This document shows, piece by piece, positions 1 through 16,012 of a stretch of 16,012 bases of DNA (the stretch's first letter is position 1; the number at the start of each line of letters is the position of its first letter). Location: positions 1-16,012 of IMG/VR virus record IMGVR_UViG_2654587792_000008; one strand, 5' to 3'. The notes below the pieces were generated by a model. The model saw only the letters and a list, made by a program, of their open reading frames with translations, ran no database searches and was not told the DNA's origin. Position numbers and translations under genes: made by a program. Source of the stretch: a virus. Taxonomy: Duplodnaviria > Heunggongvirae > Uroviricota > Caudoviricetes.

Positions 1-510
1 GTGGCTACGCAGACTGAAGTTGCCAGGCATTTAAGTCTGACCGATCGCCAGCTTCGCAGATTGCAGAAATTGCCGGGTGCCCCGATATCGAATAAGCGAG
101 GGCAACTGGATCTGGATGCCTGGCGCGATTTTTACATATCGTATCTGAGGAGAAGTAAAAACGATGTGCCTGATGGCGATAGCGAAGACGACTATGAGGA
201 GAAATTGCTTATTGCCAGATGGGAACTGACAGCAGAACAGGCTGTTACACAGCAGTTAAAAAATGAGGTGTCAAAAGGAAAACTGATTGACACCGGGTTC
301 TGTATTTTTGCCCTCAGTAAGCTGGCAATGGCGTTATCCAGTACGCTTGATTCCATCCCTTTATCCATGCAGCGACAGTTTCCTGATTTAACACCGCGCC
401 ATCTTGACCATCTGAAAACCCTTATTGCGAAGGGGGCAAATCAGTGTGCGCGGGCAGGGGATAAATTACCGGATTTACTCGATGAATATATCAGAGCAAC
501 AACTGAATAA
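1..510 (+). CDS. nu1: Terminase small subunit (lambda Nu1-like); start at window edge, possibly 5'-partial or GTG-initiated
   Basis: ORF 1..510 (169 aa). N-terminal segment TEVARHLSLTDRQLRRLQKLPGAPI resembles the HTH region of lambda gpNu1 as recalled. It sits directly upstream of, and overlaps by 29 nt, the terminase large subunit, as in lambda. Confidence 0.8.
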   Translation: MATQTEVARHLSLTDRQLRRLQKLPGAPISNKRGQLDLDAWRDFYISYLRRSKNDVPDGDSEDDYEEKLLIARWELTAEQAVTQQLKNEVSKGKLIDTGFCIFALSKLAMALSSTLDSIPLSMQRQFPDLTPRHLDHLKTLIAKGANQCARAGDKLPDLLDEYIRATTE

Positions 511-2410
511 TATGATGGCTGCCGTTTCGGTTGCGCTGCAGCCTCTGGTCAGGGTTGTACCAATGACGGCAGTTGAATGGGCTGATCAAAATTATTATCT
601 GCCTAAAGAATCTTCATATGGTGAGGGAGAATGGAAAACGCTGCCATTCCAGATCGCCATTATGAACTGTATGGGTAACGACCAGGTTCGCACGGTTAAC
701 CTGATTAAATCTGCCCGTGTTGGCTATACAAAGATGTTGCTGGGGGTGGTCGGGTATTTTATTGAGCATAAATCCCGAAACAGTCTGCTTTTTCAGCCCA
801 CGGATTCTGCCGCTGAAGATTTTATGAAGTCTCACGTGGAGGCGACGATTCGGAACGTGCCATGCCTGAAAGACCTTTCCCCATGGCTGGGTCGTAAACA
901 TCGTGACAATACTCTCACGCTGAAACGCTTTTCATCGGGCGTCGGTTTCTGGTGCCTGGGCGGCGCAGCCGCCAAAAACTACCGTGAAAAATCCGTGGAC
1001 GTGGTCTGCTATGACGAACTTTCCTCGTTCGAGCCGGATGTCGAAAAAGAGGGCTCGCCAACCCTGCTGGGGGATAAGCGTATTGAGGGCTCGGTATGGC
1101 CAAAATCCATTCGCGGCTCGACGCCTAAAATCAAAGGCACCTGCCAGATCGAAAAAGCCGCCAACGAGTCGGCGCATTTCATGCGTTTCTATGTGCCCTG
1201 CCCGCACTGTGGGGAGGAGCAGTATCTGAAATTTGGCGATGAGTCCACGCCTTTTGGGCTTAAATGGGAGAAGGACAGCCCTGAAAGTGTTTTCTACCTC
1301 TGTGAACATCATGGCTGCGTGATCCATCAGTCTGAGCTTGACCAGAGCAACGGGCGGTGGATCTGTGAAAACACGGGCATGTGGACCCGTGACGGTCTGA
1401 CGTTTTTCAGCGCCCGGGGTGATGAAATTCCGCCGCCGCGCTCCATCACGTTCCATATCTGGACGGCGTACAGTCCGTTCACCACCTGGGTACAGATTGT
1501 CTATGACTGGCTGGATGCACTGAAAGATCCCAACGGCCTGAAAACCTTTGTGAACACCACGCTGGGCGAGACCTGGGAAGAGGCCGTGGGCGAAAAACTC
1601 GATCACCAGGTACTGATGGATAAGGTGGTGCGTTACACGGCGGCGGTGCCTGCCCGGGTGGTTTATCTGACGGCGGGCATTGACTCGCAGCGAAACCGTT
1701 TTGAGATGTATGTCTGGGGATGGGCACCGGGAGAGGAAGCCTTTCTGGTGGATAAAATCATCATTATGGGCCGTCCCGATGAGGAAGAGACGCTGTTACG
1801 TGTGGATGCGGCGATCAACAAAAAATACCGCCATGCAGACGGAACCGAAATGACCATTTCCCGTGTCTGCTGGGACACCGGGGGGATCGATGGTGAAATT
1901 GTCTATCAGAGATCAAAAAAACACGGTGTTTTCCGGGTGCTGCCGGTAAAAGGCGCATCTGTCTATGGCAAGCCGGTGATCACCATGCCAAAAACCCGCA
2001 ATCAGCGGGGCGTGTATCTGTGTGAAGTGGGAACGGACACCGCAAAAGAAATTCTCTATGCCCGTATGAAAGCCGATCCCACGCCTGCGGATGAAGCCAC
2101 GTCGTATGCCATCCGTTTTCCTGATGATCCGGAGATTTTTTCGCAGACAGAGGCGCAGCAACTGGTGGCGGAAGAGCTGGTGGAGAAGTGGGAAAAAGGA
2201 AAGATGCGTCTGCTGTGGGATAACAAAAAGCGGCGTAACGAAGCGCTGGACTGCCTGGTGTATGCCTACGCGGCATTACGTGTGTCCGTGCAACGCTGGC
2301 AGCTTGATCTGGCTGTACTGGCAAAATCCCGGGAAGAAGAGACGACCCGGCCAACCCTGAAAGAACTGGCAGCGAAGCTGTCCGGAGGAGTGAATGGTTA
2401 CAGTCGCTGA
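482..2410 (+). CDS. A: Terminase large subunit (lambda gpA-like)
   Basis: ORF-track frame 425..2410. Start moved to the in-frame ATG at 482 (MNISEQQ...), matching the recalled lambda gpA N-terminus MNISNSQ. Long conserved blocks shared with recalled gpA include TAVEWAD.NYYLPKES, KSARVGY.KMLLGV, FMRF.V.CPHCGEEQYLKFGD, HIWTAYSPFTTWVQIV, FVNTTLGETWE, SKKHG.FRV.P.KGASVYGKPV and KKRRNEALDC. Confidence 0.93.
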   Translation: MNISEQQLNNMMAAVSVALQPLVRVVPMTAVEWADQNYYLPKESSYGEGEWKTLPFQIAIMNCMGNDQVRTVNLIKSARVGYTKMLLGVVGYFIEHKSRNSLLFQPTDSAAEDFMKSHVEATIRNVPCLKDLSPWLGRKHRDNTLTLKRFSSGVGFWCLGGAAAKNYREKSVDVVCYDELSSFEPDVEKEGSPTLLGDKRIEGSVWPKSIRGSTPKIKGTCQIEKAANESAHFMRFYVPCPHCGEEQYLKFGDESTPFGLKWEKDSPESVFYLCEHHGCVIHQSELDQSNGRWICENTGMWTRDGLTFFSARGDEIPPPRSITFHIWTAYSPFTTWVQIVYDWLDALKDPNGLKTFVNTTLGETWEEAVGEKLDHQVLMDKVVRYTAAVPARVVYLTAGIDSQRNRFEMYVWGWAPGEEAFLVDKIIIMGRPDEEETLLRVDAAINKKYRHADGTEMTISRVCWDTGGIDGEIVYQRSKKHGVFRVLPVKGASVYGKPVITMPKTRNQRGVYLCEVGTDTAKEILYARMKADPTPADEATSYAIRFPDDPEIFSQTEAQQLVAEELVEKWEKGKMRLLWDNKKRRNEALDCLVYAYAALRVSVQRWQLDLAVLAKSREEETTRPTLKELAAKLSGGVNGYSR

Positions 2411-2600
2411 ACTGCAGGCGCTGCGTCAGGCGCGCCTTGATTTATTAACCGGTAAACGGGTGGTGTCTGTCCAGAAAGATGGTCGCAGAATTGAATATAC
2501 GGCGGCTTCTCTGGATGAGCTTAACCGGGCGATCAATGATGCGGAGTCGGTACTGGGGACAACCCGACGTCGCCGTCGTCCGCTGGGAGTGAGGTTATGA
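2394..2600 (+). CDS. W: Head-tail joining / head completion protein (lambda gpW-like)
   Basis: 68-aa ORF with LTGKRVVSVQKDGRRIEYTAASL, matching recalled lambda gpW ([22 protein letters not shown]), which is also 68 aa. Overlaps the terminase stop and the portal start (ATGA overlap at 2597-2600). Confidence 0.9.
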   Translation: MVTVAELQALRQARLDLLTGKRVVSVQKDGRRIEYTAASLDELNRAINDAESVLGTTRRRRRPLGVRL

Positions 2601-4189
2601 AACGAACGCCTGTCCTGATTGATGTGAACGGCGTTCCGCTTCGTGAGAGTCTCAGCTACAACGGGGGCGGCGCAGGATTTGGCGGGCAAATGGCGGAGTG
2701 GTTGCCACCGGCGCAGAGTGCCGATGCGGCCCTGCTGCCCGCGTTGCGTCTGGGGAATGCCCGGGCAGATGATCTGGTGCGCAATAACGGAATAGCGGCC
2801 AATGCGGTGGCCCTGCATAAGGATCACATTGTCGGGCATATGTTTCTGATCAGCTACCGTCCGAACTGGCGCTGGCTGGGGATGCGGGAGACCGCAGCAA
2901 AAAGCTTTGTCGATGAGGTGGAGGCGGCCTGGTCGGAATACGCAGAAGGGATGTCTGGCGAGATCGACGTGGAAGGAAAACGCACATTCACGGAATTTAT
3001 CCGTGAAGGTGTGGGCGTTCATGCGTTTAACGGCGAAATCTTTGTGCAGCCGGTCTGGGATACGGAAACCACGCAGTTATTCCGTACGCGTTTTAAAGCC
3101 GTGAGTCCGAAACGGGTGGACACGCCAGGACACGGTATGGGGAACCGTTTTCTGCGGGCCGGGGTGGAGGTCGATCGATATGGCCGTGCCGTTGCGTACC
3201 ATATCTGTGAGGATGATTTTCCGTTCTCCGGGAGTGGACGATGGGAACGGATCCCGCGTGAACTTCCCACCGGGCGTCCGGCCATGCTGCATATTTTCGA
3301 GCCGGTGGAGGACGGGCAGACCCGTGGGGCCAACCAGTTTTACAGCGTCATGGAACGGCTGAAGATGCTCGATTCCCTGCAGGCAACACAGCTTCAGTCG
3401 GCCATTGTGAAAGCCATGTATGCAGCGACGATTGAAAGTGAACTTGATACCGAAAAGGCCTTTGAATATATCGCCGGCGCGCCACAGGAGCAGAAGGATA
3501 ATCCGCTTATTAATATTCTGGAGAAGTTCTCCAGCTGGTATGACACGAATAACGTGACACTGGGCGGTGTCAAAATTCCGCACCTTTTCCCCGGGGATGA
3601 TCTGAAACTACAGACTGCGCAGGATTCAGACAATGGATTTTCGGCGCTTGAACAGGCGCTGCTGCGGTATATCGCCGCCGGTCTTGGCGTTTCCTACGAA
3701 CAGTTGTCCCGTGATTACTCGAAGGTCAGTTATTCAAGTGCCAGGGCCTCTGCCAATGAGTCGTGGCGCTATTTTATGGGGCGGCGAAAATTTATTGCGG
3801 CCCGGCTGGCCACGCAGATGTTTTCCTGCTGGCTGGAAGAGGCACTTCTTCGGGGGATTATCCGTCCGCCACGGGCGCGTTTTGATTTTTATCAGGCGCG
3901 ATCAGCCTGGTCACGGGCAGAGTGGATTGGTGCCGGAAGAATGGCCATTGACGGGCTCAAGGAGGTTCAGGAATCAGTGATGCGCATTGAGGCCGGACTG
4001 AGCACGTATGAGAAAGAGCTGGCGCTGATGGGCGAGGATTATCAGGACATTTTCCGCCAGCAGGTCAGGGAATCTGCAGAGCGACAAAAAGCCGGACTCT
4101 CACGTCCGGTGTGGATAGCGCAGGCGTATCAGCAGCAGATAGCGGAGAGTCGCAGGCCGGAAGAGGAGACAACACCACGTGAGACGTAA
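2597..4189 (+). CDS. B: Portal protein (lambda gpB-like)
   Basis: 530-aa ORF (lambda gpB is about 533 aa). Conserved blocks include GNARADDLVRNNG.AANA, FEPVEDGQTRGAN.FYSVME, LQSAIVKAMYAATIESELDT, LLRYIAAGLGVSYEQLSR, ARASANESW.YFMGRRKF and GRMAIDGLKEVQE.VM.IEAGLSTYEKE. Confidence 0.93.
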   Translation: MKRTPVLIDVNGVPLRESLSYNGGGAGFGGQMAEWLPPAQSADAALLPALRLGNARADDLVRNNGIAANAVALHKDHIVGHMFLISYRPNWRWLGMRETAAKSFVDEVEAAWSEYAEGMSGEIDVEGKRTFTEFIREGVGVHAFNGEIFVQPVWDTETTQLFRTRFKAVSPKRVDTPGHGMGNRFLRAGVEVDRYGRAVAYHICEDDFPFSGSGRWERIPRELPTGRPAMLHIFEPVEDGQTRGANQFYSVMERLKMLDSLQATQLQSAIVKAMYAATIESELDTEKAFEYIAGAPQEQKDNPLINILEKFSSWYDTNNVTLGGVKIPHLFPGDDLKLQTAQDSDNGFSALEQALLRYIAAGLGVSYEQLSRDYSKVSYSSARASANESWRYFMGRRKFIAARLATQMFSCWLEEALLRGIIRPPRARFDFYQARSAWSRAEWIGAGRMAIDGLKEVQESVMRIEAGLSTYEKELALMGEDYQDIFRQQVRESAERQKAGLSRPVWIAQAYQQQIAESRRPEEETTPRET

Positions 4190-5684
4190 TCTTTCACACA
4201 TTATTGCCGCAGCATTCAATGAACCGCTGCTTCTGGAGCCCGCCTATGCGCGGGTTTTCTTTTGCGCGCTCGGGCGCGAGATGGGGGCATCAAGTCTTTC
4301 GGTACCACAACAGCAGGTACAGTTTGATGCTCCCGGAATGCTGGCTGAAACGGACGAGTACATGGCCGTAGGTAAACGACCGGCCCGTGTTTACCGGGTG
4401 GTGAACGGTATTGCTGTACTGCCGGTGACCGGCACGCTGGTGCACCGGCTGGGGGGTATGCGGCCATTTTCCGGAATGACAGGCTATGACGGCATTGTCG
4501 CCTGTCTTCAGCAGGCAATGGCGGATAGCCAGGTGCGGGGCGTACTGCTGGACATTGACAGTCCGGGCGGGCAGGCCGCCGGCGCGTTTGACTGCGCTGA
4601 CATGATTTACCGCCTCCGTCAGCAGAAGCCGGTCTGGGCACTGTGCAATGACACGGCCTGCTCTGCAGCCATGCTGCTGGCGTCGGCCTGCTCCCGACGG
4701 CTGGTTACCCAGACATCCCGTATCGGCTCCATTGGCGTGATGATGAGCCATGTCAGCTATGCCGGTCATCTGGCGCAGGCCGGTGTGGATATCACGCTGA
4801 TTTACTCAGGGACGCACAAGGTGGATGGCAATCAGTTTGAAGCCTTACCGGCAGAGGTTCGCCAGGACATGCAACAGCGCATTGATGCGGCGCGCCGGAT
4901 GTTTGCCGAAAAAGTGGCGATGTATACCGGTCTGTCTGTTGATGCCGTCACGGGAACAGAGGCCGCCGTTTTTGAAGGTCAGTCCGGCATTGAGGCCGGG
5001 CTGGCGGATGAATTAGTCAATGCGTCGGATGCCATCAGTGTGATGGCCACGGCGCTGAACAGTAATGTCAGAGGAGGCACTATGCCGCAATTAACTGCAA
5101 CGGAAGCCGCCGCGCAGGAGAACCAGCGAGTGATGGGGATCCTGACATGCCAGGAAGCGAAAGGACGTGAACAGCTTGCCACGATGCTGGCAGGACAACA
5201 GGGCATGAGCGTTGAACAGGCCCGGGCGATTCTGGCCGCGGCGGCACCGCAGCAGCCGGTGGCATCCACGCAGAGTGAAGCCGATCGCATTATGGCGTGT
5301 GAAGAAGCGAACGGTCGTGAACAACTGGCGGCAACGCTGGCGGCGATGCCGGAGATGACGGTGGAAAAAGCCCGCCCGATCCTGGCTGCTTCACCGCAGG
5401 CGGATGCCGGACCCTCACTCCGTGATCAGATCATGGCACTGGATGAGGCAAAAGGGGATGAGGCGCAGGCTGAACAGCTGGCTGCCTGCCCGGGAATGAC
5501 TGTGGAGAGCGCCCGGGCTGTGCTGGCTGCGAGATCAGGTAAGGCAGAACCGGTCTCTGCATCCACAACCGCCCTGTTTGAACGCATCATGGCGAACCAT
5601 TCACCGGCAGCGGTACAGGGTGGCGTGCCACAGACGTCAGCAGACGGTGATGCGGACGTGAAAATGCTCATGGCCATGCCATGA
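4179..5684 (+). CDS. C: Head maturation protease / scaffold (lambda gpC-like, S49/ClpP-type peptidase fold) with an expanded C-terminal repeat region; apparent GTG start
   Basis: 501-aa ORF. N-terminus AAFNEPLLLEPAYARVFFCAL matches recalled lambda gpC (MAFNEPLMLEPAYARVFFCAL). Conserved protease-region blocks include NGIAVLPV.GTL, SGMTGY.GI, AGAFDCAD.I, KPVWAL.ND, CSA..LLASA.SRRLVTQT.R.GSIGVMM.H and ITLIYSG.HKVDGN. Codon 4179-4181 is GTG and overlaps the portal stop. Confidence 0.9.
   Translation: MRRNLSHIIAAAFNEPLLLEPAYARVFFCALGREMGASSLSVPQQQVQFDAPGMLAETDEYMAVGKRPARVYRVVNGIAVLPVTGTLVHRLGGMRPFSGMTGYDGIVACLQQAMADSQVRGVLLDIDSPGGQAAGAFDCADMIYRLRQQKPVWALCNDTACSAAMLLASACSRRLVTQTSRIGSIGVMMSHVSYAGHLAQAGVDITLIYSGTHKVDGNQFEALPAEVRQDMQQRIDAARRMFAEKVAMYTGLSVDAVTGTEAAVFEGQSGIEAGLADELVNASDAISVMATALNSNVRGGTMPQLTATEAAAQENQRVMGILTCQEAKGREQLATMLAGQQGMSVEQARAILAAAAPQQPVASTQSEADRIMACEEANGREQLAATLAAMPEMTVEKARPILAASPQADAGPSLRDQIMALDEAKGDEAQAEQLAACPGMTVESARAVLAARSGKAEPVSASTTALFERIMANHSPAAVQGGVPQTSADGDADVKMLMAMP
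5082..5684 (+). CDS. Possible nested in-frame scaffolding protein (lambda Nu3-like) from an internal start within C
   Basis: In-frame ATG at 5082 preceded by GAGGAGG (5071-5077). Lambda expresses Nu3 from an internal in-frame start in the 3' part of C. The product would contain the repeat region. The short 4-nt SD spacer and lack of expression data keep confidence low. Confidence 0.4.
   Translation: MPQLTATEAAAQENQRVMGILTCQEAKGREQLATMLAGQQGMSVEQARAILAAAAPQQPVASTQSEADRIMACEEANGREQLAATLAAMPEMTVEKARPILAASPQADAGPSLRDQIMALDEAKGDEAQAEQLAACPGMTVESARAVLAARSGKAEPVSASTTALFERIMANHSPAAVQGGVPQTSADGDADVKMLMAMP
5125..5684 (+). repeat. Intragenic imperfect tandem repeats (about 140-160 bp period, roughly 3.3 copies) in the C/Nu3 scaffold domain
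   Basis: Protein-level repeats are visible directly: RVMGILTCQEAKGREQLATMLAGQQGMSVEQARAILAAA / RIMACEEANGREQLAATLAAMPEMTVEKARPILAAS / QIMALDEAKGDEAQAEQLAACPGMTVESARAVLAAR / RIMANH... Recalled lambda gpC has a single copy (IMGILNCEEAHGREEQARVLAETPGMTVKTARRILAAA). Confidence 0.75.
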
Positions 5685-5720
5685 AGTCAGTGCTGACCAT
5701 CAACAGGAGGTTTTTACAAT

Positions 5721-6068
5721 ATGGTAACGAAAAACATCACTGAACAGCGTGCGGAAGTACGTATTTTTGCCGGTAATGATCCGGCTCATACCGCCACAGG
5801 CAGCAGCGGGATTTCCTCGGCAACACCGGCACTGACGCCCCTGATGCTGGATGAAGCCAGCGGGAAACTGGTGGTCTGGGACGGACAGAAAGCCGGTAGT
5901 GCAGTTGGCATACTGGTACTGCCGCTTGAAGGCACAGAGACGGTACTGACCTATTACAAGTCGGGGACCTTTGCGACGGAGGCAATCCGCTGGCCTGAAA
6001 GTGTGGATGAACACAAAAAGGCAAATGCCTTTGCCGGCAGTGCCCTGAGTCACGCGGCGCTGCCGTAA
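5721..6068 (+). CDS. D: Head decoration protein (lambda gpD-like)
   Basis: 115-aa ORF with DPAHTAT, TPLMLD, KLV.WDG, AVGIL, YKSGTF and AFAG, matching recalled lambda gpD (about 110 aa). RBS-like AGGAGG upstream at about 5705-5710. Confidence 0.9.
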   Translation: MVTKNITEQRAEVRIFAGNDPAHTATGSSGISSATPALTPLMLDEASGKLVVWDGQKAGSAVGILVLPLEGTETVLTYYKSGTFATEAIRWPESVDEHKKANAFAGSALSHAALP

Positions 6069-6125: not shown

Positions 6126-7154
6126 ATGGGATTGTTTACGACCCGCCAGTTACTCGGTTATACCGAACAAAAAGTGAAATTTCGTGCGCTGTTTCTGGAG
6201 CTGTTTTTCCGCCGTACGGTGAATTTCCATACCGAAGAGGTGATGCTGGACAAAATTACCGGAAAAACGCCGGTGGCGGCCTATGTCTCCCCGGTTGTTG
6301 AAGGAAAAGTGCTGCGTCATCGTGGTGGTGAAACCCGCGTGTTACGTCCGGGCTACGTCAAGCCGAAACACGAATTTAATTACCAGCAGGCGGTTGAGCG
6401 TCTTCCCGGTGAAGATCCGGCTCAGCTGAACGACCCGGCTTACCGTCGTCTGCGTATCATCACTGATAACCTCAAACAGGAAGAGCATGCCATTGTCCAG
6501 GTGGAAGAAATGCAGGCGGTGAATGCCGTGCTGTATGGCAAATACACGATGGAAGGAGACCAGTTCGAGAAAATTGAGGTCGATTTTGGCAGGTCGACGA
6601 AGAATAACATCACTCAGGGTAGTGGTAAGGAGTGGTCAAAACAGGATCGTGACACGTTCGATCCTACACATGATCTTGACCTCTACTGCGACCAGGCCAG
6701 CGGTCTTGTGAATATTGCCATTATGGACGGTACCGTCTGGCGTCTGCTGAATGGCTTTAAATTGTTCCGCGAAAAACTGGATACCCGTCGCGGCTCTAAT
6801 TCGCAACTCGAAACAGCGGTGAAAGACCTGGGCGCGGTGGTGTCCTTCAAAGGGTATTACGGCGATCTGGCCATTGTGGTGGCAAAAACGTCTTATGTGG
6901 CAGAGGACGGTACCGAAAAACGTTATCTGCCTGAGGGCTCGCTGGTCCTGGGGAATACGGCAGCAGAGGGCATTCGTTGCTATGGTGCCATTCAGGATGC
7001 GCAGGCGTTGTCCGAAGGTGTGGTGGCCTCTTCCCGTTATCCGAAACACTGGCTGACGGTAGGGGATCCCGCCCGTGAATTTACCATGACGCAGTCCGCG
7101 CCGCTGATGGTGTTGCCGGACCCGGATGAGTTTGTGGTGGTACAGGTGAAATAA
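6126..7154 (+). CDS. E: Major capsid protein (lambda gpE-like)
   Basis: 342-aa ORF (lambda gpE is about 341 aa). Conserved blocks include PGYVKPKHE, DPAYRR.RII, AI.QVEEMQAV.AVL.GKYTM.G, KLDTRRGSNS.LETAVKDLG, GDPAREFTM.QSAPLM.L.DPDEFV.VQ. Confidence 0.95.
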   Translation: MGLFTTRQLLGYTEQKVKFRALFLELFFRRTVNFHTEEVMLDKITGKTPVAAYVSPVVEGKVLRHRGGETRVLRPGYVKPKHEFNYQQAVERLPGEDPAQLNDPAYRRLRIITDNLKQEEHAIVQVEEMQAVNAVLYGKYTMEGDQFEKIEVDFGRSTKNNITQGSGKEWSKQDRDTFDPTHDLDLYCDQASGLVNIAIMDGTVWRLLNGFKLFREKLDTRRGSNSQLETAVKDLGAVVSFKGYYGDLAIVVAKTSYVAEDGTEKRYLPEGSLVLGNTAAEGIRCYGAIQDAQALSEGVVASSRYPKHWLTVGDPAREFTMTQSAPLMVLPDPDEFVVVQVK

Positions 7155-10113: not shown

Positions 10114-10553
10114 ATTTTGCCCTCAGACTGGCGCGTGAGATGGGGAGGCCTGACTGGCGCGCCATGCTTGCCGGGATGACATCCACCGAATATGCCGACT
10201 GGCGACATTTTTACCGCACGCATTATTTTCAGGATACCCAGCTGGATATGCATTTTTCCGGGCTGATGTACGCTGTACTCAGCCTGTTTTTTTGCGATCC
10301 GGATATGCATCCCTCTGATTTCAGTCTGCTTGTCCCCCGGCATGAGGAAGAGCAGGTGGAGAGGCTGGATGAGGACAAAATGCTGATGCAGAAAGCGGCA
10401 GGACTTGCCGGAGGCGTCCGGTTCGGTGGGGACGGAGGGCGCGATATTTTATCGTCTGCGGATGTGGCGGATGTCATGGTGGATGATGCCGCATTAATGA
10501 TGGCTTCAGCGGGGATTCCAGGAGGTGTGAGATATGTCCCAGCCGGTTGGTGA
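10095..10553 (+). CDS. T: Tail assembly protein T-frame segment (lambda gpT-like), expressed as a G-T fusion by -1 frameshift; no independent start assumed
   Basis: The -1 frame relative to G is open from the slippery site to the stop at 10553, and its 3' end overlaps the H start (10534), as in lambda G/T/H. The ORF-track ATG at 10140 is in this frame. Confidence 0.78.
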   Translation, partial: VFDGELNFALRLAREMGRPDWRAMLAGMTSTEYADWRHFYRTHYFQDTQLDMHFSGLMYAVLSLFFCDPDMHPSDFSLLVPRHEEEQVERLDEDKMLMQKAAGLAGGVRFGGDGGRDILSSADVADVMVDDAALMMASAGIPGGVRYVPAGW

Positions 10554-11160
10554 TCTTATTATTGACCTGAGTCTGGATGCGGTCCGTTTCGATGAGCAGA
10601 TGAGCCGGGTAAGGCGTCATTTTTCAGGACTGGATACTGACGCCAGAAAAACCGCCAGTGCTGTTGAACAGGGCCTGAGCCGCCAGGCGCTGGCTGCACA
10701 AAAAGCCGGGATTTCCGTCGGGCAGTATAAAGCGGCCATGCGAACCCTGCCCGCACAGTTTACGGATATCGCCACGCAGCTTGCCGGTGGTCAGAATCCC
10801 TGGCTGATCCTGCTGCAACAGGGCGGTCAGGTGAAGGACTCCTTCGGCGGGATGATCCCCATGCTCAGGGGGCTTGCCGGTGCGATCACCCTGCCGATGG
10901 TCGGGGTCACCTCGCTGGCGGTGGCGACAGGTGCGCTGGCGTACGCCTGGTACCAGGGGGATTCCACGCTTTCAGCGTTTAATAAAACCCTGGTTCTTTC
11001 CGGTAATCAGTCCGGACTGACTGCCGATCGTATGCTGACTCTCTCAAGAGCCGGGCAGGCAGCAGGGCTGACGTTTAACCAGGCGAGAGAGTCACTGGCT
11101 GTATTGATTCACTTGAAGTACGAAAAAAACCGGGAGGACATTGGATTATTCGGGATCTGA
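10534..11160 (+). pseudogene. H: Tape measure protein gene H, 5' fragment only (about 188 native codons), disrupted by Mu insertion; frame runs 20 codons into Mu before a stop
   Basis: N-terminus VGDL..DLSLDA.RFDEQM.RVRRHFSG ... ALAAQKAGISVGQYKAAMR.LPAQFTD.ATQLAGGQ.PWLILLQQGGQVKDSFGGMIPM.RGLAGAITLPMVG.TSLAVATGALAYAWYQG.STLS.FNKTLVLSGNQ.GLTADRML.LSRAGQAAGLTFNQ matches recalled lambda gpH (853 aa). Similarity ends at about 11099, where the Mu terminus begins. Confidence 0.9.
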
Positions 11161-11271
11161 TGGGATTAGATTTGGTGGGGCTTGCAAGCCTGTAGCGCAA
11201 ATTTTAGTCGTTAATCAATGAAACGCGAAAGATAGTAAAAAATTGCTTTTGTTTCATTGAAAATACGAAAA
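11100..11271 (+). repeat. Mu attL with transposase-binding sites L1 (about 11105-11126), L2 (about 11210-11231) and L3 (about 11250-11271)
   Basis: L1 TGATTCACTTGAAGTACGAAAA and L3 TGTTTCATTGAAAATACGAAAA fit the MuA site consensus TGNTTCAYTNNAAGYRCGAAAR. L2 (TTAATCAATGAAACGCGAAAG) is a weaker match. Spacing corresponds to Mu coordinates 6-27, 111-132 and 151-172. Confidence 0.85.
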
Positions 11272-11437
11272 ACAAAAACACTGCAAATCATTTCAATAAC
11301 AGCTTCAAAAAACGTTCAAAACCGATAACAACCAAGCTGTCACCAAATGACTCATATCACAAATCAGCTTATGCCGTTTAGGTATGTTACATGTGTGATT
11401 ATGTGAGGTGAAGTATGTTTTAGCTGGTTCATGGTTG

Positions 11438-12028
11438 TTATACGGCTTTTTTTACCTCCTGTGGTTCCTGTGAAGGTACTACAACACTTTCCTGTTCATG
11501 AATCCCATACTTTGACAAAATCTCTTTGCGTTTTTCTTCAGGTAATGCATCTAGCATCATCAACGTCTGAATACTTTGCTGTGAAAATCCTATAAAGCTG
11601 TAAAGTTTCTGTTCATTAAATACAAGAGGCATTAACGCCAACAACCCCCCTTTACTTAAAAGTTTCAGTGCCTTGCGTGCTTCATCTGGTTCCAGCTCTT
11701 CAATCATATTGATTAAGGTTGTGGTTAATTTGTTTATCAGTTCCGAAGAATCCTGTTTCTCATTGGCTTGAGCACCAGTATCCGGTGTGGATAACCCCAA
11801 GTGCGCAATAACTTGCTCTCGTTCTTTGGTGGGCATCGACATCACATCGTATTCAACAGCTTTCCCCCCCTTGACACCTTCCTTTTTTCGCTTCGTCCAG
11901 CCTTGAACATTTGCTCGATAGTGAACACCAGCAACAGATCCAGGCATACCATCAGCAGCCATAATTTCTTGCGGCGAACACCAAATTGACTTTTCAGTAT
12001 TATCCTTTTCTATAAAGTTACTTTTCAA
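11438..12028 (-). CDS. c: Mu repressor c
   Basis: 196-aa ORF on the - strand: MKSNFIEK.NTEKSIWCSPQEIMAADGMPGSVAGVHYRANVQGWTKRKKEGVKGGKAVEY..., matching recalled Mu Rep (196 aa). Divergent from ner across the operator region. Confidence 0.95.
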   Translation of the reverse strand: MKSNFIEKDNTEKSIWCSPQEIMAADGMPGSVAGVHYRANVQGWTKRKKEGVKGGKAVEYDVMSMPTKEREQVIAHLGLSTPDTGAQANEKQDSSELINKLTTTLINMIEELEPDEARKALKLLSKGGLLALMPLVFNEQKLYSFIGFSQQSIQTLMMLDALPEEKRKEILSKYGIHEQESVVVPSQEPQEVKKAV

Positions 12029-12197
12029 AATTTAAACCCCTTATTTATCAACGCGTTAATCAGTAATCAAAGGAATTTACCAAAAAGCAGCTTTACAAAA
12101 AGCTTTTCAGTAATTATCTTTTTAGCAAGCTAGCTAAGTTTTTACACTTAGTTAAATTGCTAACTTTATAGATTACAAAACTTAGGAGGGTTTTTAA
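12029..12197. promoter_or_regulatory. Mu early regulatory region: operators O1-O3, IHF site, divergent promoters Pe and Pc, overlapping the transposition enhancer
   Basis: AT-rich 169-bp region between divergent c and ner, about 930-1098 bp from the Mu left end, where these elements lie in Mu. Individual operator boundaries are not resolved here. SD TAGGAGGG precedes the ner ATG. Confidence 0.7.
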
Positions 12198-12425
12198 ATG
12201 TGTTCCAACGAAAAGGCCCGTGATTGGCATCGTGCGGATGTGATTGCGGGACTTAAGAAAAGAAAGCTCTCTTTATCAGCTCTTTCCCGGCAGTTTGGTT
12301 ATGCGCCAACTACATTAGCTAATGCGCTAGAACGACACTGGCCAAAGGGTGAGCAGATTATTGCTAACGCCTTAGAAACTAAACCGGAAGTAATCTGGCC
12401 TAGCCGATATCAAGCAGGTGAGTAA
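12198..12425 (+). CDS. ner: Mu Ner (negative regulator of early transcription; small DNA-binding protein)
   Basis: 75-aa [78 protein letters not shown], matching recalled Mu Ner (75 aa) and its position. Confidence 0.93.
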
Positions 12426-12426
12426 C

Positions 12427-14418
12427 ATGGAACTTTGGGTATCACCGAAAGAGTGTGCGAATCTTCCTGGTTTGCCGAAAACATCGGCTGGTGTGATTTA
12501 TGTTGCTAAAAAGCAAGGATGGCAAAACCGCACTAGAGCAGGTGTCAAAGGTGGTAAAGCAATTGAATACAATGCGAACTCTTTACCTGTTGAAGCGAAA
12601 GCGGCGTTATTGCTGAGACAAGGAGAGATTGAAACAAGCCTGGGGTATTTTGAAATCGCCCGCCCCACGCTGGAAGCCCATGATTATGATCGTGAGGCAC
12701 TGTGGAGCAAATGGGATAACGCCAGCGATTCCCAGCGCAGACTTGCTGAAAAATGGTTGCCTGCGGTTCAGGCTGCAGACGAAATGCTGAACCAGGGGAT
12801 TTCAACGAAAACGGCTTTTGCGACCGTTGCAGGGCATTACCAGGTCAGCGCATCCACTTTGCGGGACAAGTATTACCAGGTACAGAAGTTTGCGAAGCCT
12901 GACTGGGCGGCTGCACTTGTTGATGGACGTGGAGCATCCCGTCGCAATGTTCACAAAAGTGAATTTGACGAGGATGCCTGGCAGTTTCTGATTGCAGATT
13001 ATCTGCGACCGGAAAAACCCGCTTTCCGCAAATGTTATGAGCGTCTGGAACTGGCAGCCCGCGAGCATGGCTGGAGTATTCCCTCCCGTGCCACGGCCTT
13101 TCGCCGGATTCAGCAACTGGACGAGGCAATGGTTGTTGCCTGTCGTGAAGGTGAACATGCACTGATGCATCTGATACCGGCACAGCAGCGAACTGTGGAA
13201 CACCTGGACGCCATGCAGTGGATCAACGGCGACGGTTATCTGCATAACGTCTTTGTACGCTGGTTTAACGGTGATGTGATCCGTCCGAAAACATGGTTCT
13301 GGCAGGATGTGAAAACCCGAAAAATTCTGGGCTGGCGCTGCGATGTGAGCGAGAACATTGATTCAATTCGCCTCTCGTTCATGGATGTTGTGACTCGCTA
13401 CGGTATCCCGGAGGATTTTCACATCACCATTGATAACACCCGTGGTGCTGCGAATAAATGGCTGACGGGAGGCGCGCCCAATCGCTACCGCTTTAAGGTA
13501 AAAGAGGACGATCCAAAAGGGCTGTTTTTACTGATGGGTGCGAAAATGCACTGGACAAGCGTTGTTGCTGGTAAAGGCTGGGGCCAGGCAAAACCTGTTG
13601 AACGTGCTTTCGGTGTTGGTGGGCTTGAGGAATACGTTGATAAGCATCCGGCACTGGCTGGCGCATATACGGGGCCTAATCCGCAGGCAAAACCTGATAA
13701 CTATGGCGACCGCGCTGTTGATGCAGAGCTGTTTCTGAAAACCCTTGCCGAAGGTGTGGCGATGTTCAATGCCAGAACAGGCCGTGAAACAGAAATGTGC
13801 GGAGGCAAACTTTCGTTTGATGACGTTTTTGAGCGTGAATACGCCAGAACGATTGTGCGTAAGCCTACCGAAGAGCAAAAACGGATGCTGTTACTGCCTG
13901 CCGAGGCGGTGAACGTTTCACGCAAAGGCGAGTTTACGCTTAAAGTTGGCGGCTCCCTTAAAGGCGCGAAAAACGTTTATTACAACATGGCGTTAATGAA
14001 TGCCGGAGTGAAAAAAGTTGTGGTCAGATTTGATCCACAGCAGTTACACAGCACGGTTTATTGCTACACCCTGGACGGTCGGTTTATCTGTGAAGCGGAA
14101 TGTCTGGCACCTGTTGCGTTTAATGATGCTGCGGCAGGTCGTGAATATCGCCGCCGCCAGAAACAACTGAAATCTGCGACGAAAGCAGCGATTAAGGCAC
14201 AGAAACAAATGGATGCACTGGAAGTGGCAGAGCTGCTGCCGCAGATAGCCGAACCTGAAGCACCAGAATCACGAATTGTCGGCATTTTCCGGCCTTCCGG
14301 TAATACGGAACGAGTGAAGAATCAGGAGCGTGATGATGAATACGAAACTGAGCGTGATGAATATCTGAATCATTCGCTGGATATTCTGGAACAGAACAGA
14401 CGTAAAAAAGCCATTTAA
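12427..14418 (+). CDS. A: Mu transposase MuA (DDE transposase)
   Basis: Start placed at ATG 12427 ([32 protein letters not shown]...), giving 663 aa, the known MuA length. The ORF-track GTG at 12418 would add 3 residues. Full-length similarity to recalled MuA, including the enhancer-binding N-terminal domain and basic C-terminal region. Confidence 0.95.
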
Positions 14419-14456
14419 TTAACGTTTAAACAAAATTTAATTACGAGGTTATTCAG

Positions 14457-15395
14457 ATGAATATTTCCGATATTCGCGCAGGACTGCGCACGCTTGTAGA
14501 AAATGAAGAAACCACCTTTAAACAAATTGCTCTTGAGAGCGGACTTTCTACCGGAACTATCAGTAGTTTTATCAATGATAAGTACAACGGGGATAACGAG
14601 CGTGTTTCACAAATGCTGCAACGCTGGCTGGAAAAATATCATGCAGTTGCAGAACTACCTGAACCGCCCCGCTTTGTGGAAACGCAGACGGTAAAACAAA
14701 TCTGGACAAGTATGCGTTTTGCCAGCCTGACTGAAAGTATTGCTGTTGTATGTGGCAATCCTGGTGTGGGCAAAACCGAAGCGGCCCGTGAATATCGCCG
14801 CACCAATAACAATGTCTGGATGATCACCATTACGCCATCCTGTGCCAGCGTTCTGGAATGTCTTACTGAACTGGCGTTTGAGCTGGGAATGAATGACGCA
14901 CCACGCCGTAAAGGGCCGCTCTCCCGCGCCCTGCGACGTCGCCTTGAAGGTACACAGGGGCTGGTTATCATCGACGAAGCTGATCATCTTGGTGCCGAAG
15001 TTCTGGAAGAACTCCGCCTGTTACAGGAATCAACCCGTATTGGCCTTGTGCTGATGGGAAATCACCGGGTTTATTCAAATATGACGGGGGGTAACAGAAC
15101 GGTTGAATTTGCCCGTCTGTTTTCCCGTATTGCAAAGCGCACTGCAATTAATAAAACCAAAAAAGCCGATGTAAAAGCTATTGCGGATGCCTGGCAGATT
15201 AACGGCGAAAAAGAACTGGAGTTATTACAGCAGATTGCGCAGAAACCAGGTGCGCTTCGCATTCTGAATCATTCACTTCGCCTTGCAGCCATGACGGCTC
15301 ACGGTAAAGGTGAGCGTGTTAACGAAGATTATCTGCGTCAGGCTTTCCGTGAATTAGACCTGGACGTTGATATTTCAACGCTGCTGCGTAATTAA
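14457..15395 (+). CDS. B: Mu transposition target-DNA activator MuB (AAA+ ATPase)
   Basis: 312-aa ORF (MuB is 312 aa). Walker A GNPGVGKT at about 14751-14777 and Walker B LVIIDEADHL, with an N-terminal HTH-like segment. Immediately downstream of A. Confidence 0.95.
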   Translation: MNISDIRAGLRTLVENEETTFKQIALESGLSTGTISSFINDKYNGDNERVSQMLQRWLEKYHAVAELPEPPRFVETQTVKQIWTSMRFASLTESIAVVCGNPGVGKTEAAREYRRTNNNVWMITITPSCASVLECLTELAFELGMNDAPRRKGPLSRALRRRLEGTQGLVIIDEADHLGAEVLEELRLLQESTRIGLVLMGNHRVYSNMTGGNRTVEFARLFSRIAKRTAINKTKKADVKAIADAWQINGEKELELLQQIAQKPGALRILNHSLRLAAMTAHGKGERVNEDYLRQAFRELDLDVDISTLLRN

Positions 15396-15410
15396 GAAGG
15401 AGAAGAAATT

Positions 15411-15638
15411 ATGATGGCCCGAAATATAAAAATGGCAACGGATGCGCAGAACTGGTTACAGGCGCGCGGGAGTCATGTAAATGAATCATATCTCGGCGTG
15501 GCGCGTCCGATTCTTGAAATCACTTACCCACCGGTGGAACTGGTAAAAAACGCGGTCAGAATTATGGAGCATAAATCCGGAGTTGCCCGTTCTGTATGGA
15601 CGGCCCGTCTTAATGGTTGCCAGATTATCTGGAGATAA
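15411..15638 (+). CDS. kil: Mu Kil-like small protein (first gene of the semi-essential region downstream of B)
   Basis: 75-aa ORF directly after B with RBS AAGGAGAAG. Position and size agree with Mu kil (about 74 aa). Called by synteny and size; I cannot verify residue-level identity from memory. Confidence 0.6.
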
Positions 15639-15640
15639 CG

Positions 15641-15871
15641 ATGTGTATTAAAGCTGAAAAATATATTGAATGGGTTAAACACTGTCAGTGCCACGGGGTG
15701 CCGCTGACGACATATAAATGCCCCGGATGTGGTGAACAGATTATGACGCAATGCTCACCCGAAAAGGAAATTCGGGATTCCATGACATGTTGTCCGTGGT
15801 GCAGCGCAGTTTTCTTTAAACAGGTAAAAGGCGCGAAGGTAAAAGCCAGCGCGGTTATTCAGAATCAATAA
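15641..15871 (+). CDS. Small Cys-rich protein (putative zinc-ribbon), Mu early/semi-essential region, function unknown
   Basis: ATG at 15641 with GGAGA RBS (the ORF-track TTG at 15617 overlaps kil). 76 aa with CQCH...CPGCGEQ...CSPEKE...CCPWC, giving paired CxxC-type spacing suggestive of a Zn-binding ribbon. Position corresponds to the ORF after kil in Mu. Confidence 0.5.
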   Translation: MCIKAEKYIEWVKHCQCHGVPLTTYKCPGCGEQIMTQCSPEKEIRDSMTCCPWCSAVFFKQVKGAKVKASAVIQNQ

Positions 15872-16012
15872 GGTGAAACAAAATGGCAAAAGTAATTATT
15901 GAAATTAAAAATACAGGTGATGCTGCCAACTTACTGATTTAGTGTATGATGGTGTTTTTGAGGTGCTCCAGTGGCTTCTGTTTCTATCAGCTGTCCCTCC
16001 TGTTCAGCTACT

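Follow-up and report, generated by a model that had tools for sequence, protein, structure and literature searches.

Three tandem units in the shared C-terminus of a phage 21-type prohead protease and its nested scaffolding protein

Introduction

How a segment that is shared between a prohead protease and its scaffolding protein has come to contain three copies of a unit found once in phage lambda, and what these copies might contribute to the assembly of the head, is the question raised by the gpC protein of a lambdoid prophage. This protein is encoded in the IMG/VR virus record IMGVR_UViG_2654587792_000008, of which we have analyzed a stretch of 16,012 nucleotides, hereafter referred to as the window. 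Its gene is a homologue of lambda C and of gene 5 of phage 21, and a first-pass annotation, made from the DNA letters without database searches, had described about three and a third imperfect copies of the unit in the part of the protein that resembles the lambda scaffolding protein Nu3. In lambda, interactions of Nu3 with itself and with the proteins C, E and B are described, as is its degradation by C (PMC3224144). Our analysis identifies the triplication, with high confidence, as the already known ‘Tri box’ repeat of phage 21 genes 5 and 6 and defines its distribution, its likely history and the predicted fold of its units.

Results

Three diverged units in the C-terminus of gpC

The translation of the gpC gene contains three tandem units of 47-53 residues (U1 to U3, Table 1) within its C-terminal 185 residues, whose cores follow the consensus xIMxxxEAKGRExLAxxLAxxPGMTVExARxILAA. 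Pairwise local alignments of the three units obtain BLOSUM62 scores of 85-101, compared to a mean of about 26 ± 5 for shuffled units, which corresponds to z = 11.6-14.9, and since the observed values were attained in none of 2000 shuffles, the alanine-rich composition of the region offers no explanation for the repeat. The three imperfect copies proposed by the first-pass annotation are in this way borne out, both in their location and in their core consensus. Between units, 21-25 of 47-50 aligned residues are identical, and the same codon is used at just 8-12 of these 21-25 positions. At the nucleotide level, pairs of units share 51-63% identity with a longest exact common run of 8-9 nucleotides, and they are too diverged for detection by Tandem Repeats Finder (TRF), which reports no repeat in the window. 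A search of the window for DNA repeats retrieved just imperfect matches of 12-25 nucleotides at a spacing of about 150 nucleotides.

The C-terminus that is common to both gene products is laid out as a short N-terminal linker followed by three cores of about 40 residues, which are separated by variable linkers of about 9-11 residues rich in P, Q, S and A, and by a conserved tail. The additional third of a copy that had been suspected did not withstand comparison, as the segment after U3 (starting with RIMANHS at residue 469), when aligned with the units, reaches z values between -0.4 and 0.8 and is thus not significantly related to them. Since the single-unit protein of lambda carries a matching motif (DRLMQGAP) after its one unit, this segment is, as judged from the alignments, the ancestral C-terminal tail instead of a partial fourth copy. 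Regardless of copy number, all homologues have a tail of 38-63 residues behind their last unit, whose FxxFM and LLxxxP-type motifs are present across orthologues. Within the units, the G-R-E motif has its arginine in nearly all of 139 aligned sequences, and this residue is retained in U3 of the Salmonella, Trabulsiella and Providencia orthologues. In U3 of the window (5454-5462, K-G-D-E) this position is occupied by aspartate, and in phage 21 by alanine (GAE).

Correspondence to the Tri boxes of phage 21

In a megablast search against phage records, the gpC gene was found to be 98.6% identical in nucleotide sequence to gene 5 of phage 21 over all 1506 nucleotides (M81255, the head gene operon; OL657228, the complete genome). 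Inside gene 6, the record M81255 contains three repeat_region features termed ‘Tri1 box’, ‘Tri box’ and ‘Tri3 box’, which are marked as ‘function unknown; putative’ and which document that the triplication was known before. When transferred to the window, these boxes coincide with the cores of U1 to U3, whose borders we had delimited independently (Table 1). The proteins of the window and of phage 21 are 98% identical in amino acid sequence and have the same length, the nested start and the three boxes in common, and they differ in substitutions such as GDE of the window versus GAE in U3 and FERIM of the window versus FEHFM in the tail. The two phages also differ in the tape-measure gene, which in the prophage of the window is interrupted by an insertion of phage Mu.

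The nested scaffolding gene

An in-frame ATG at position 5082 is preceded, at a distance of 4 nucleotides, by the Shine-Dalgarno sequence AGGAGG, which can be read directly from the DNA and which is annotated as a putative ribosome binding site in both phage 21 records. A coding sequence of 200 residues is found at the identical position in these records, as gp6 in M81255 and as ‘scaffolding protein’ in OL657228, and the PHROG families 8940 and 8399 (capsid assembly / head scaffolding protein) match the nested gene in three stretches. A GGAG-type motif in front of an in-frame methionine, located where the protease domain ends, is moreover found in nearly all gpC homologues. The internal start is thus predicted to yield a scaffold that is identical to the C-terminus of the protease, and the earlier placement of the repeats in a Nu3-like scaffold part agrees with this region of gene 6.

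The length of the predicted nested product is 120-154 residues in single-unit proteins (median 137, with one mis-parsed outlier excluded), 150 residues in a two-unit protein and 191-202 residues in three-unit proteins. The linker that connects the internal methionine to the first unit comprises 33-68 residues (median 54) in single-unit relatives, where it is of low complexity, versus 18-23 residues in multi-unit proteins.

Comparison with lambda

Alignment with lambda gpC, a protein of 439 residues (4418-5737), confirmed the presence of a single unit in this homologue, as had been stated in the first-pass annotation. Lambda gpC/gpNu3 and the protein of the window are 58% identical in amino acid sequence over the alignment and they share their architecture, the gene order, the common C-terminus of protease and scaffold, the signature of the unit and the type of tail. 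In lambda, one unit follows a linker of about 54 residues, whereas in the window three units follow a linker of 18 residues. The proposal that the repeats account for the difference in length between both proteins holds in part: the two extra units contribute about 99 residues, but a stretch of 36 residues of the lambda linker is missing in the window, which leaves a net difference of 62 residues. The nested product would comprise 200 residues in the window versus about 131 in lambda, if translation in the latter starts at the conserved methionine. The packaged genomes of phage 21 and lambda measure 42.9 kb and 48.5 kb, respectively, and both phages contain homologous E-type capsid proteins; the size of the capsid is thus not obviously changed between them.

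The annotation of lambda nu3 itself deserves attention. In the RefSeq record NC_001416, the gene starts at position 5132 and encodes 201 residues (L003 833-1438). The equivalent of the phage 21 gene 6 start is a conserved internal methionine near residue 309 of lambda gpC (GGR-MTKETQ...), which is preceded by GGAG and which would lead to a product of about 131 residues. As judged from this conservation, the start in RefSeq may be located too far upstream.

Copy number among relatives

The gpC gene has matches at 3,254 places in the E. coli collection. Matches with a query coverage of at least 80% were found in 1,866 of 5,426 complete E. coli genomes, and 17 of 20 E. coli matches that were sampled evenly down the ranking are gap-free at the full 1506 nucleotides, a length that is also constant in the sequenced phages 21, ev017, 4A7, 1W and 3W. 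For a census of copy number, one genome per species was scanned for gpC relatives and the units were counted with a hidden Markov model built from four units. Three units are found in E. coli, Shigella, E. albertii, Trabulsiella guamensis (71% identity) and Providencia alcalifaciens (63%), and two in Buttiauxella ferragutiae. One unit is contained in 47 distinct sequences from Enterobacteriaceae, Aeromonadaceae, Vibrio, Photobacterium, Pseudomonas, Marinobacter and others, a count that covers relatives with a detectable unit. A protein search with the 200-residue tail gave mostly truncated database proteins, which makes it unsuitable for a census and which we have used for variants; it added Salmonella proteins with three units (e.g. 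P0027).

When a profile built from the three units was run against 1.84 billion cluster representatives, it retrieved 368 proteins with at most three matched stretches each. Among 57 full-length-like proteins (at least 380 residues), nearly all of which come from this search, 56 carry one unit and one carries three, which refutes the alternative that most lambda-like C proteins contain three copies. We thus regard one unit as the ancestral and usual state of the family. At the same time, the expectation that copy number would vary among homologues has been confirmed, with one to four units found.

Four units characterize a gpC lineage in other E. coli prophages (P0028; L085), which is present in 104 of the 5,426 complete genomes. 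It shares with the window the family, the unit and a tandem expansion at the matching place, but its units 2-4 are much more alike and cluster together in a tree of units, unlike those of the window, which in terms of sequence points to a separate and more recent expansion or homogenisation. In one member (L085 410-918, on a contig of E. coli GCA_032727965) the tandem repeat is visible in the DNA, with a period of 138 nucleotides, 3.7 copies and 77% matches. A fragment, P0100, contains two identical consecutive units. The four-unit array, which is younger or homogenised, could show genuine length polymorphism.

Origin and stability of the triplication

A neighbour-joining tree built from the units places each U1 among the single units of lambda-type proteins. 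The U2s from the window phage, Salmonella, Trabulsiella and Providencia form one group, and most U3s form another. This arrangement is suggestive of one old triplication, in which U1 would be the original copy and which would have taken place before the gene diverged into its versions in E. coli, Salmonella, Trabulsiella and Providencia. Orthologues match the window at 44-78% of the residues in the cores and at 0-55% in the linkers between units; for U2 the respective values are 55-73% and, in its flanking linkers, 9-55%. The conservation of the cores above the level of the drifting linkers implies that all three are under purifying selection.

Natural variants of the three-unit protein are rare. 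In E. coli TUM1223 (L084, WP_001253887.1), one of the exceptions among the 20 sampled matches, an in-frame deletion of 57 nucleotides within U2 removes 19 residues and results in an annotated S49 peptidase of 482 residues. The deleted segment corresponds to positions 5325-5381 of the window and is located between two CTGGC pentamers (5325-5329 and 5382-5386), and it thus looks like the result of an illegitimate recombination event. In a few database proteins (P0020, P0021 and P0016), a unit is lost or U1 and U2 are fused in register.

Predicted structure of the units

A model of one unit obtained with AlphaFold2 from an alignment of 139 sequences shows a three-helix bundle with helices at positions 3-18, 26-33 and 40-49, a predicted local distance difference test score (pLDDT) of 91.4 and a predicted template modelling score (pTM) of 0.73. 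The unit is thus predicted to be a folded bundle instead of a disordered sequence. In the model of the 200-residue nested protein, the helical units have a pLDDT of about 70-83, the linkers fall below 60 and the pTM is 0.28, consistent with an arrangement of beads on a string. A Foldseek search of this model against the PDB returned only noise (best E = 1.1), which is accounted for by its beads-on-a-string character and low pTM, and a structure search with the model of the single unit found only generic three-helix bundles. Among them, the domains of staphylococcal protein A, the GA albumin-binding modules and BibA display a generic likeness of fold at low Z and 4-18% identity, which we do not take as evidence for homology or a common ligand.

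Discussion

We consider it very likely that the described locus harbors the Tri box triplication of a phage 21-type 5/6 gene pair, encoding a protease of 501 and a scaffold of 200 residues, in which the units may serve as interaction modules. In such a scenario, a single reading frame would give rise to two products, the full-length S49 protease and the scaffold starting at ATG 5082, whose shared C-terminus would, by analogy to lambda, allow few protease molecules to co-assemble in the procapsid with many scaffold molecules, the portal and the major capsid protein. As in lambda, the protease would afterwards destroy the scaffold and itself. The units might act as folded scaffold modules that mediate self-association and/or contacts with the capsid protein or the portal, and three of them on flexible linkers would provide a longer, multivalent scaffold that replaces the long disordered linker. 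Our confidence in this valency mechanism, where the unit is an interaction module and three of them confer multivalency, is moderate to low, since the scaffolds of P22 and phi29 bind the capsid by a terminal element, since a separate tail is present here, and since gpNu3 has been described as disordered. A more specific and, in our judgement, only tentative proposal holds that the copy number of an autonomous binding module of about 40 residues, ranging from one to four by lambdoid lineage, sets the number of contacts that each scaffold or protease makes with the capsid lattice, the portal or other scaffold molecules, and that it trades off against the length of the disordered N-terminal linker. 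If true, lambdoid scaffolds would constitute a natural series that relates scaffold valency to assembly fidelity and protease loading.

Several observations weigh against a role of the units as interaction modules and against the history that we have assigned to them. The capsid-binding element of P22 is the extreme C-terminus of the scaffold, which forms a helix-turn-helix, and a terminal helix-turn-helix is also found in phi29 (PMC11922011). By analogy, and given the separate conserved tail that follows them, the units may not be the part that binds the capsid. Not every unit may be needed, as indicated by the loss of the arginine in U3 and the deletion of 19 residues within U2. The tree of units is based on about 40 residues and therefore suggestive only, and the relation between linker length and copy number is defined by very few independent events. 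Finally, judging by its title, a 2011 study by Medina and colleagues reportedly finds lambda gpNu3 to be intrinsically disordered, which is in some tension with a unit that is confidently predicted to fold. The small helical elements by which P22 gp8 and phi29 gp7 contact the capsid protein offer a functional analogy (PMC11922011), although these scaffolds, unlike gpC of the window, are neither fused to a protease nor do they contain tandem copies, and the searches by sequence and by structure revealed no sequence match and no significant fold match between them and the protein of the window.

The main alternative to interaction modules is a role of the extra units as spacer or bulk, which would replace the disordered linker and keep the length or volume of the scaffold workable with no gain in valency. 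Such a role would account for the short linker after the internal methionine in multi-copy proteins (18-23 residues versus 33-68, median 54, in single-copy proteins), for the absence of the conserved arginine in U3, for the 19-residue deletion within U2 of an annotated E. coli protein, and for the variants P0020, P0021 and P0016, which lack a unit. However, the nested product of 191-202 residues still exceeds the single-unit median of 137 by about 60, so that length has not been maintained. Across genera, the cores of U2 and U3 are distinctly better conserved than the linkers, and both units have kept the EAxGRE, PGMT and A..L signature that marks the ancestral unit, which would not be expected of a pure spacer. 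We thus regard this explanation as rather improbable. Much less probable still is the possibility that the part of the unit with the sequence ‘PGMTVExARxIL’ forms a helix-hairpin-helix motif and that the tail of scaffold and protease binds nucleic acid, in particular DNA: the matches to the Pfam HHH family that bring this motif to mind (E=0.034-0.2) reach 12-14.5 bits against a cut-off of 24, and gpC does not qualify as a member.

The first-pass annotation had considered the repeat to be prone to slippage and had raised the concern that it might reflect a collapse or expansion during assembly. A recent, unstable tandem expansion, whose copy number shifts by slippage, or an artefact of assembly would be in line with the rare in-frame variants, such as the 57-nucleotide deletion in U2 that is flanked by a 5-nucleotide CTGGC direct repeat, with the in-register fusions of U1 and U2 or the losses of units in a few database proteins, and with the four-unit E. 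coli lineage, whose copies retain 77% likeness at the DNA level at a period of 138 nucleotides. Yet the units of the window share 51-63% of their nucleotides with no more than 9 identical bases in a row and they leave TRF without a hit, which rules out collapse or expansion in the assembly and, as far as the DNA is concerned, renders both slippage during replication and homologous unequal crossing-over improbable. The length of 1506 nucleotides is constant in independent complete genomes and in the five phages named above, and the triplication extends to other genera, with three units conserved by position down to 63% protein identity. In all these respects, the low identity between copies, the constant length in the sampled genomes and phages, and the restriction of variation to rare deletions, the locus does not resemble a variable-number tandem repeat, and we consider instability and artefact to be effectively refuted. 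The same data dispel the concern about the assembly, in light of the 17 of 20 sampled matches that are gap-free and of full length and the 1,866 genomes whose matches cover at least 80% of the query.

The preferred reading, a triplication of interaction modules in a phage 21-type gene pair, carries little weight as a discovery, since the triplication is annotated in M81255 and about 34% of complete E. coli genomes carry it. The contribution of our analysis is its context, namely the one-unit norm, the probable single old origin of the three units, the separate four-unit form and the predicted fold. The natural series of proteins with one, two, three and four units, together with the deletion variants, offers convenient material for studies of scaffold and partner proteins in lambda-type phages.

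Family assignment and genomic context

The identity of gpC as head protease C, already proposed in the first-pass annotation, is well supported. Residues 146-293 match Peptidase_S49 (PF01343) with E=1.1e-35 and 123.4 bits versus a cut-off of 24.9, which places the protein in the S49 family, and its entire length (residues 1-501) matches PHROG 53 ‘head maturation protease’ with E=1.5e-227. The only relatives found by sequence in the PDB are SppA signal-peptide peptidases (3rst, 4kwb, 3bez), whose matches reach just the N-terminal part of gpC (residues 77-290, E=1e-15). Residues S162 (CSAA) and K214 (HKVDGN) are identical in the alignment of the window, phage 21 and lambda and may correspond to the catalytic Ser/Lys dyad of SppA- and gpC-type peptidases. 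Matches of gpC to the Pfam families HHH, T2SSK and HTH_15 were rejected, as all of them are below threshold.

The window comprises the part of a lambdoid prophage that encodes its head and tail, with tail genes located after the capsid gene. The GTG start of the gpC gene overlaps with the 3' end of the portal gene and the gene is placed between those of the portal and of the decoration and capsid proteins, a location that, together with the similarity over its full length, corresponds to that of the C/Nu3 type. Two long open reading frames on the minus strand are antisense to the repeat region (4979-5290, 103 residues; 5426-5677, 83 residues) and are probably by-products of an alanine-rich frame with 62% G+C.

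Table 1. Features of the gpC locus and of its surroundings, in coordinates of the window.
Feature	Position	Strand	Remarks
Prohead protease/scaffold fusion gene (lambda C, phage 21 gene 5 homologue)	4179..5684	+	GTG start, 501 aa; from list of open reading frames and translation
S49 serine peptidase domain, aa 146-293	4614..5057	+	Pfam PF01343
Shine-Dalgarno sequence AGGAGG	5072..5077	+	4 nt upstream of ATG 5082; direct sequence reading
Nested scaffolding-protein gene (phage 21 gene 6, lambda Nu3 equivalent)	5082..5684	+	200 aa, in gpC frame
Unit 1 (U1), aa 317-369	5127-5285	+	core 5127-5252 plus linker
Tri1 box	5149-5252		within U1
Unit 2 (U2), aa 370-416	5286-5426	+	core 5286-5399 plus linker
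Tri box	5289-5399		within U2
Unit 3 (U3), aa 417-468	5427-5582	+	core 5427-5540 plus linker
Tri3 box	5430-5543		U3
C-terminal tail (RIMANHSPAAV ... DVKMLMAMP)	5583..5681	+	type common to single-copy proteins
Large terminase	425-2410
Portal	2597-4189
HDPD decoration protein	5721-6068		lambda-D type
Major capsid protein, E-type	6126-7154		Phage_cap_E
Mu c repressor	11438-12028	minus
Mu ner	12198-12425
MuA	12418-14418
MuB	14457-15395

The insertion in the tape-measure gene consists of the left end of phage Mu, which occupies positions 11101-16012 of the window and is 99.1% identical to positions 2-4817 of AF083977. The junction is located at 11100/11101, and the tape-measure reading frame (10534-11160) is shortened to 208 residues, the last codons of which are Mu sequence (TGTATTGATTCACTTGAAGTACG... 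from 11101). The junction between tape-measure gene and Mu is present in none of the 5,426 complete E. coli genomes.

A further observation concerns assemblies labelled Chromatium, Kitasatospora, Shewanella, Pseudomonas, Oceanobacillus, Leeuwenhoekiella, Enterococcus and others (L016-L019, L021-L023, L041, L050), which contain a gpC that is 100% identical to that of lambda. For several of these contigs, the name gives a coverage of about 1x or less, and the sequences are almost certainly contaminating lambda DNA and not prophages of the named hosts.

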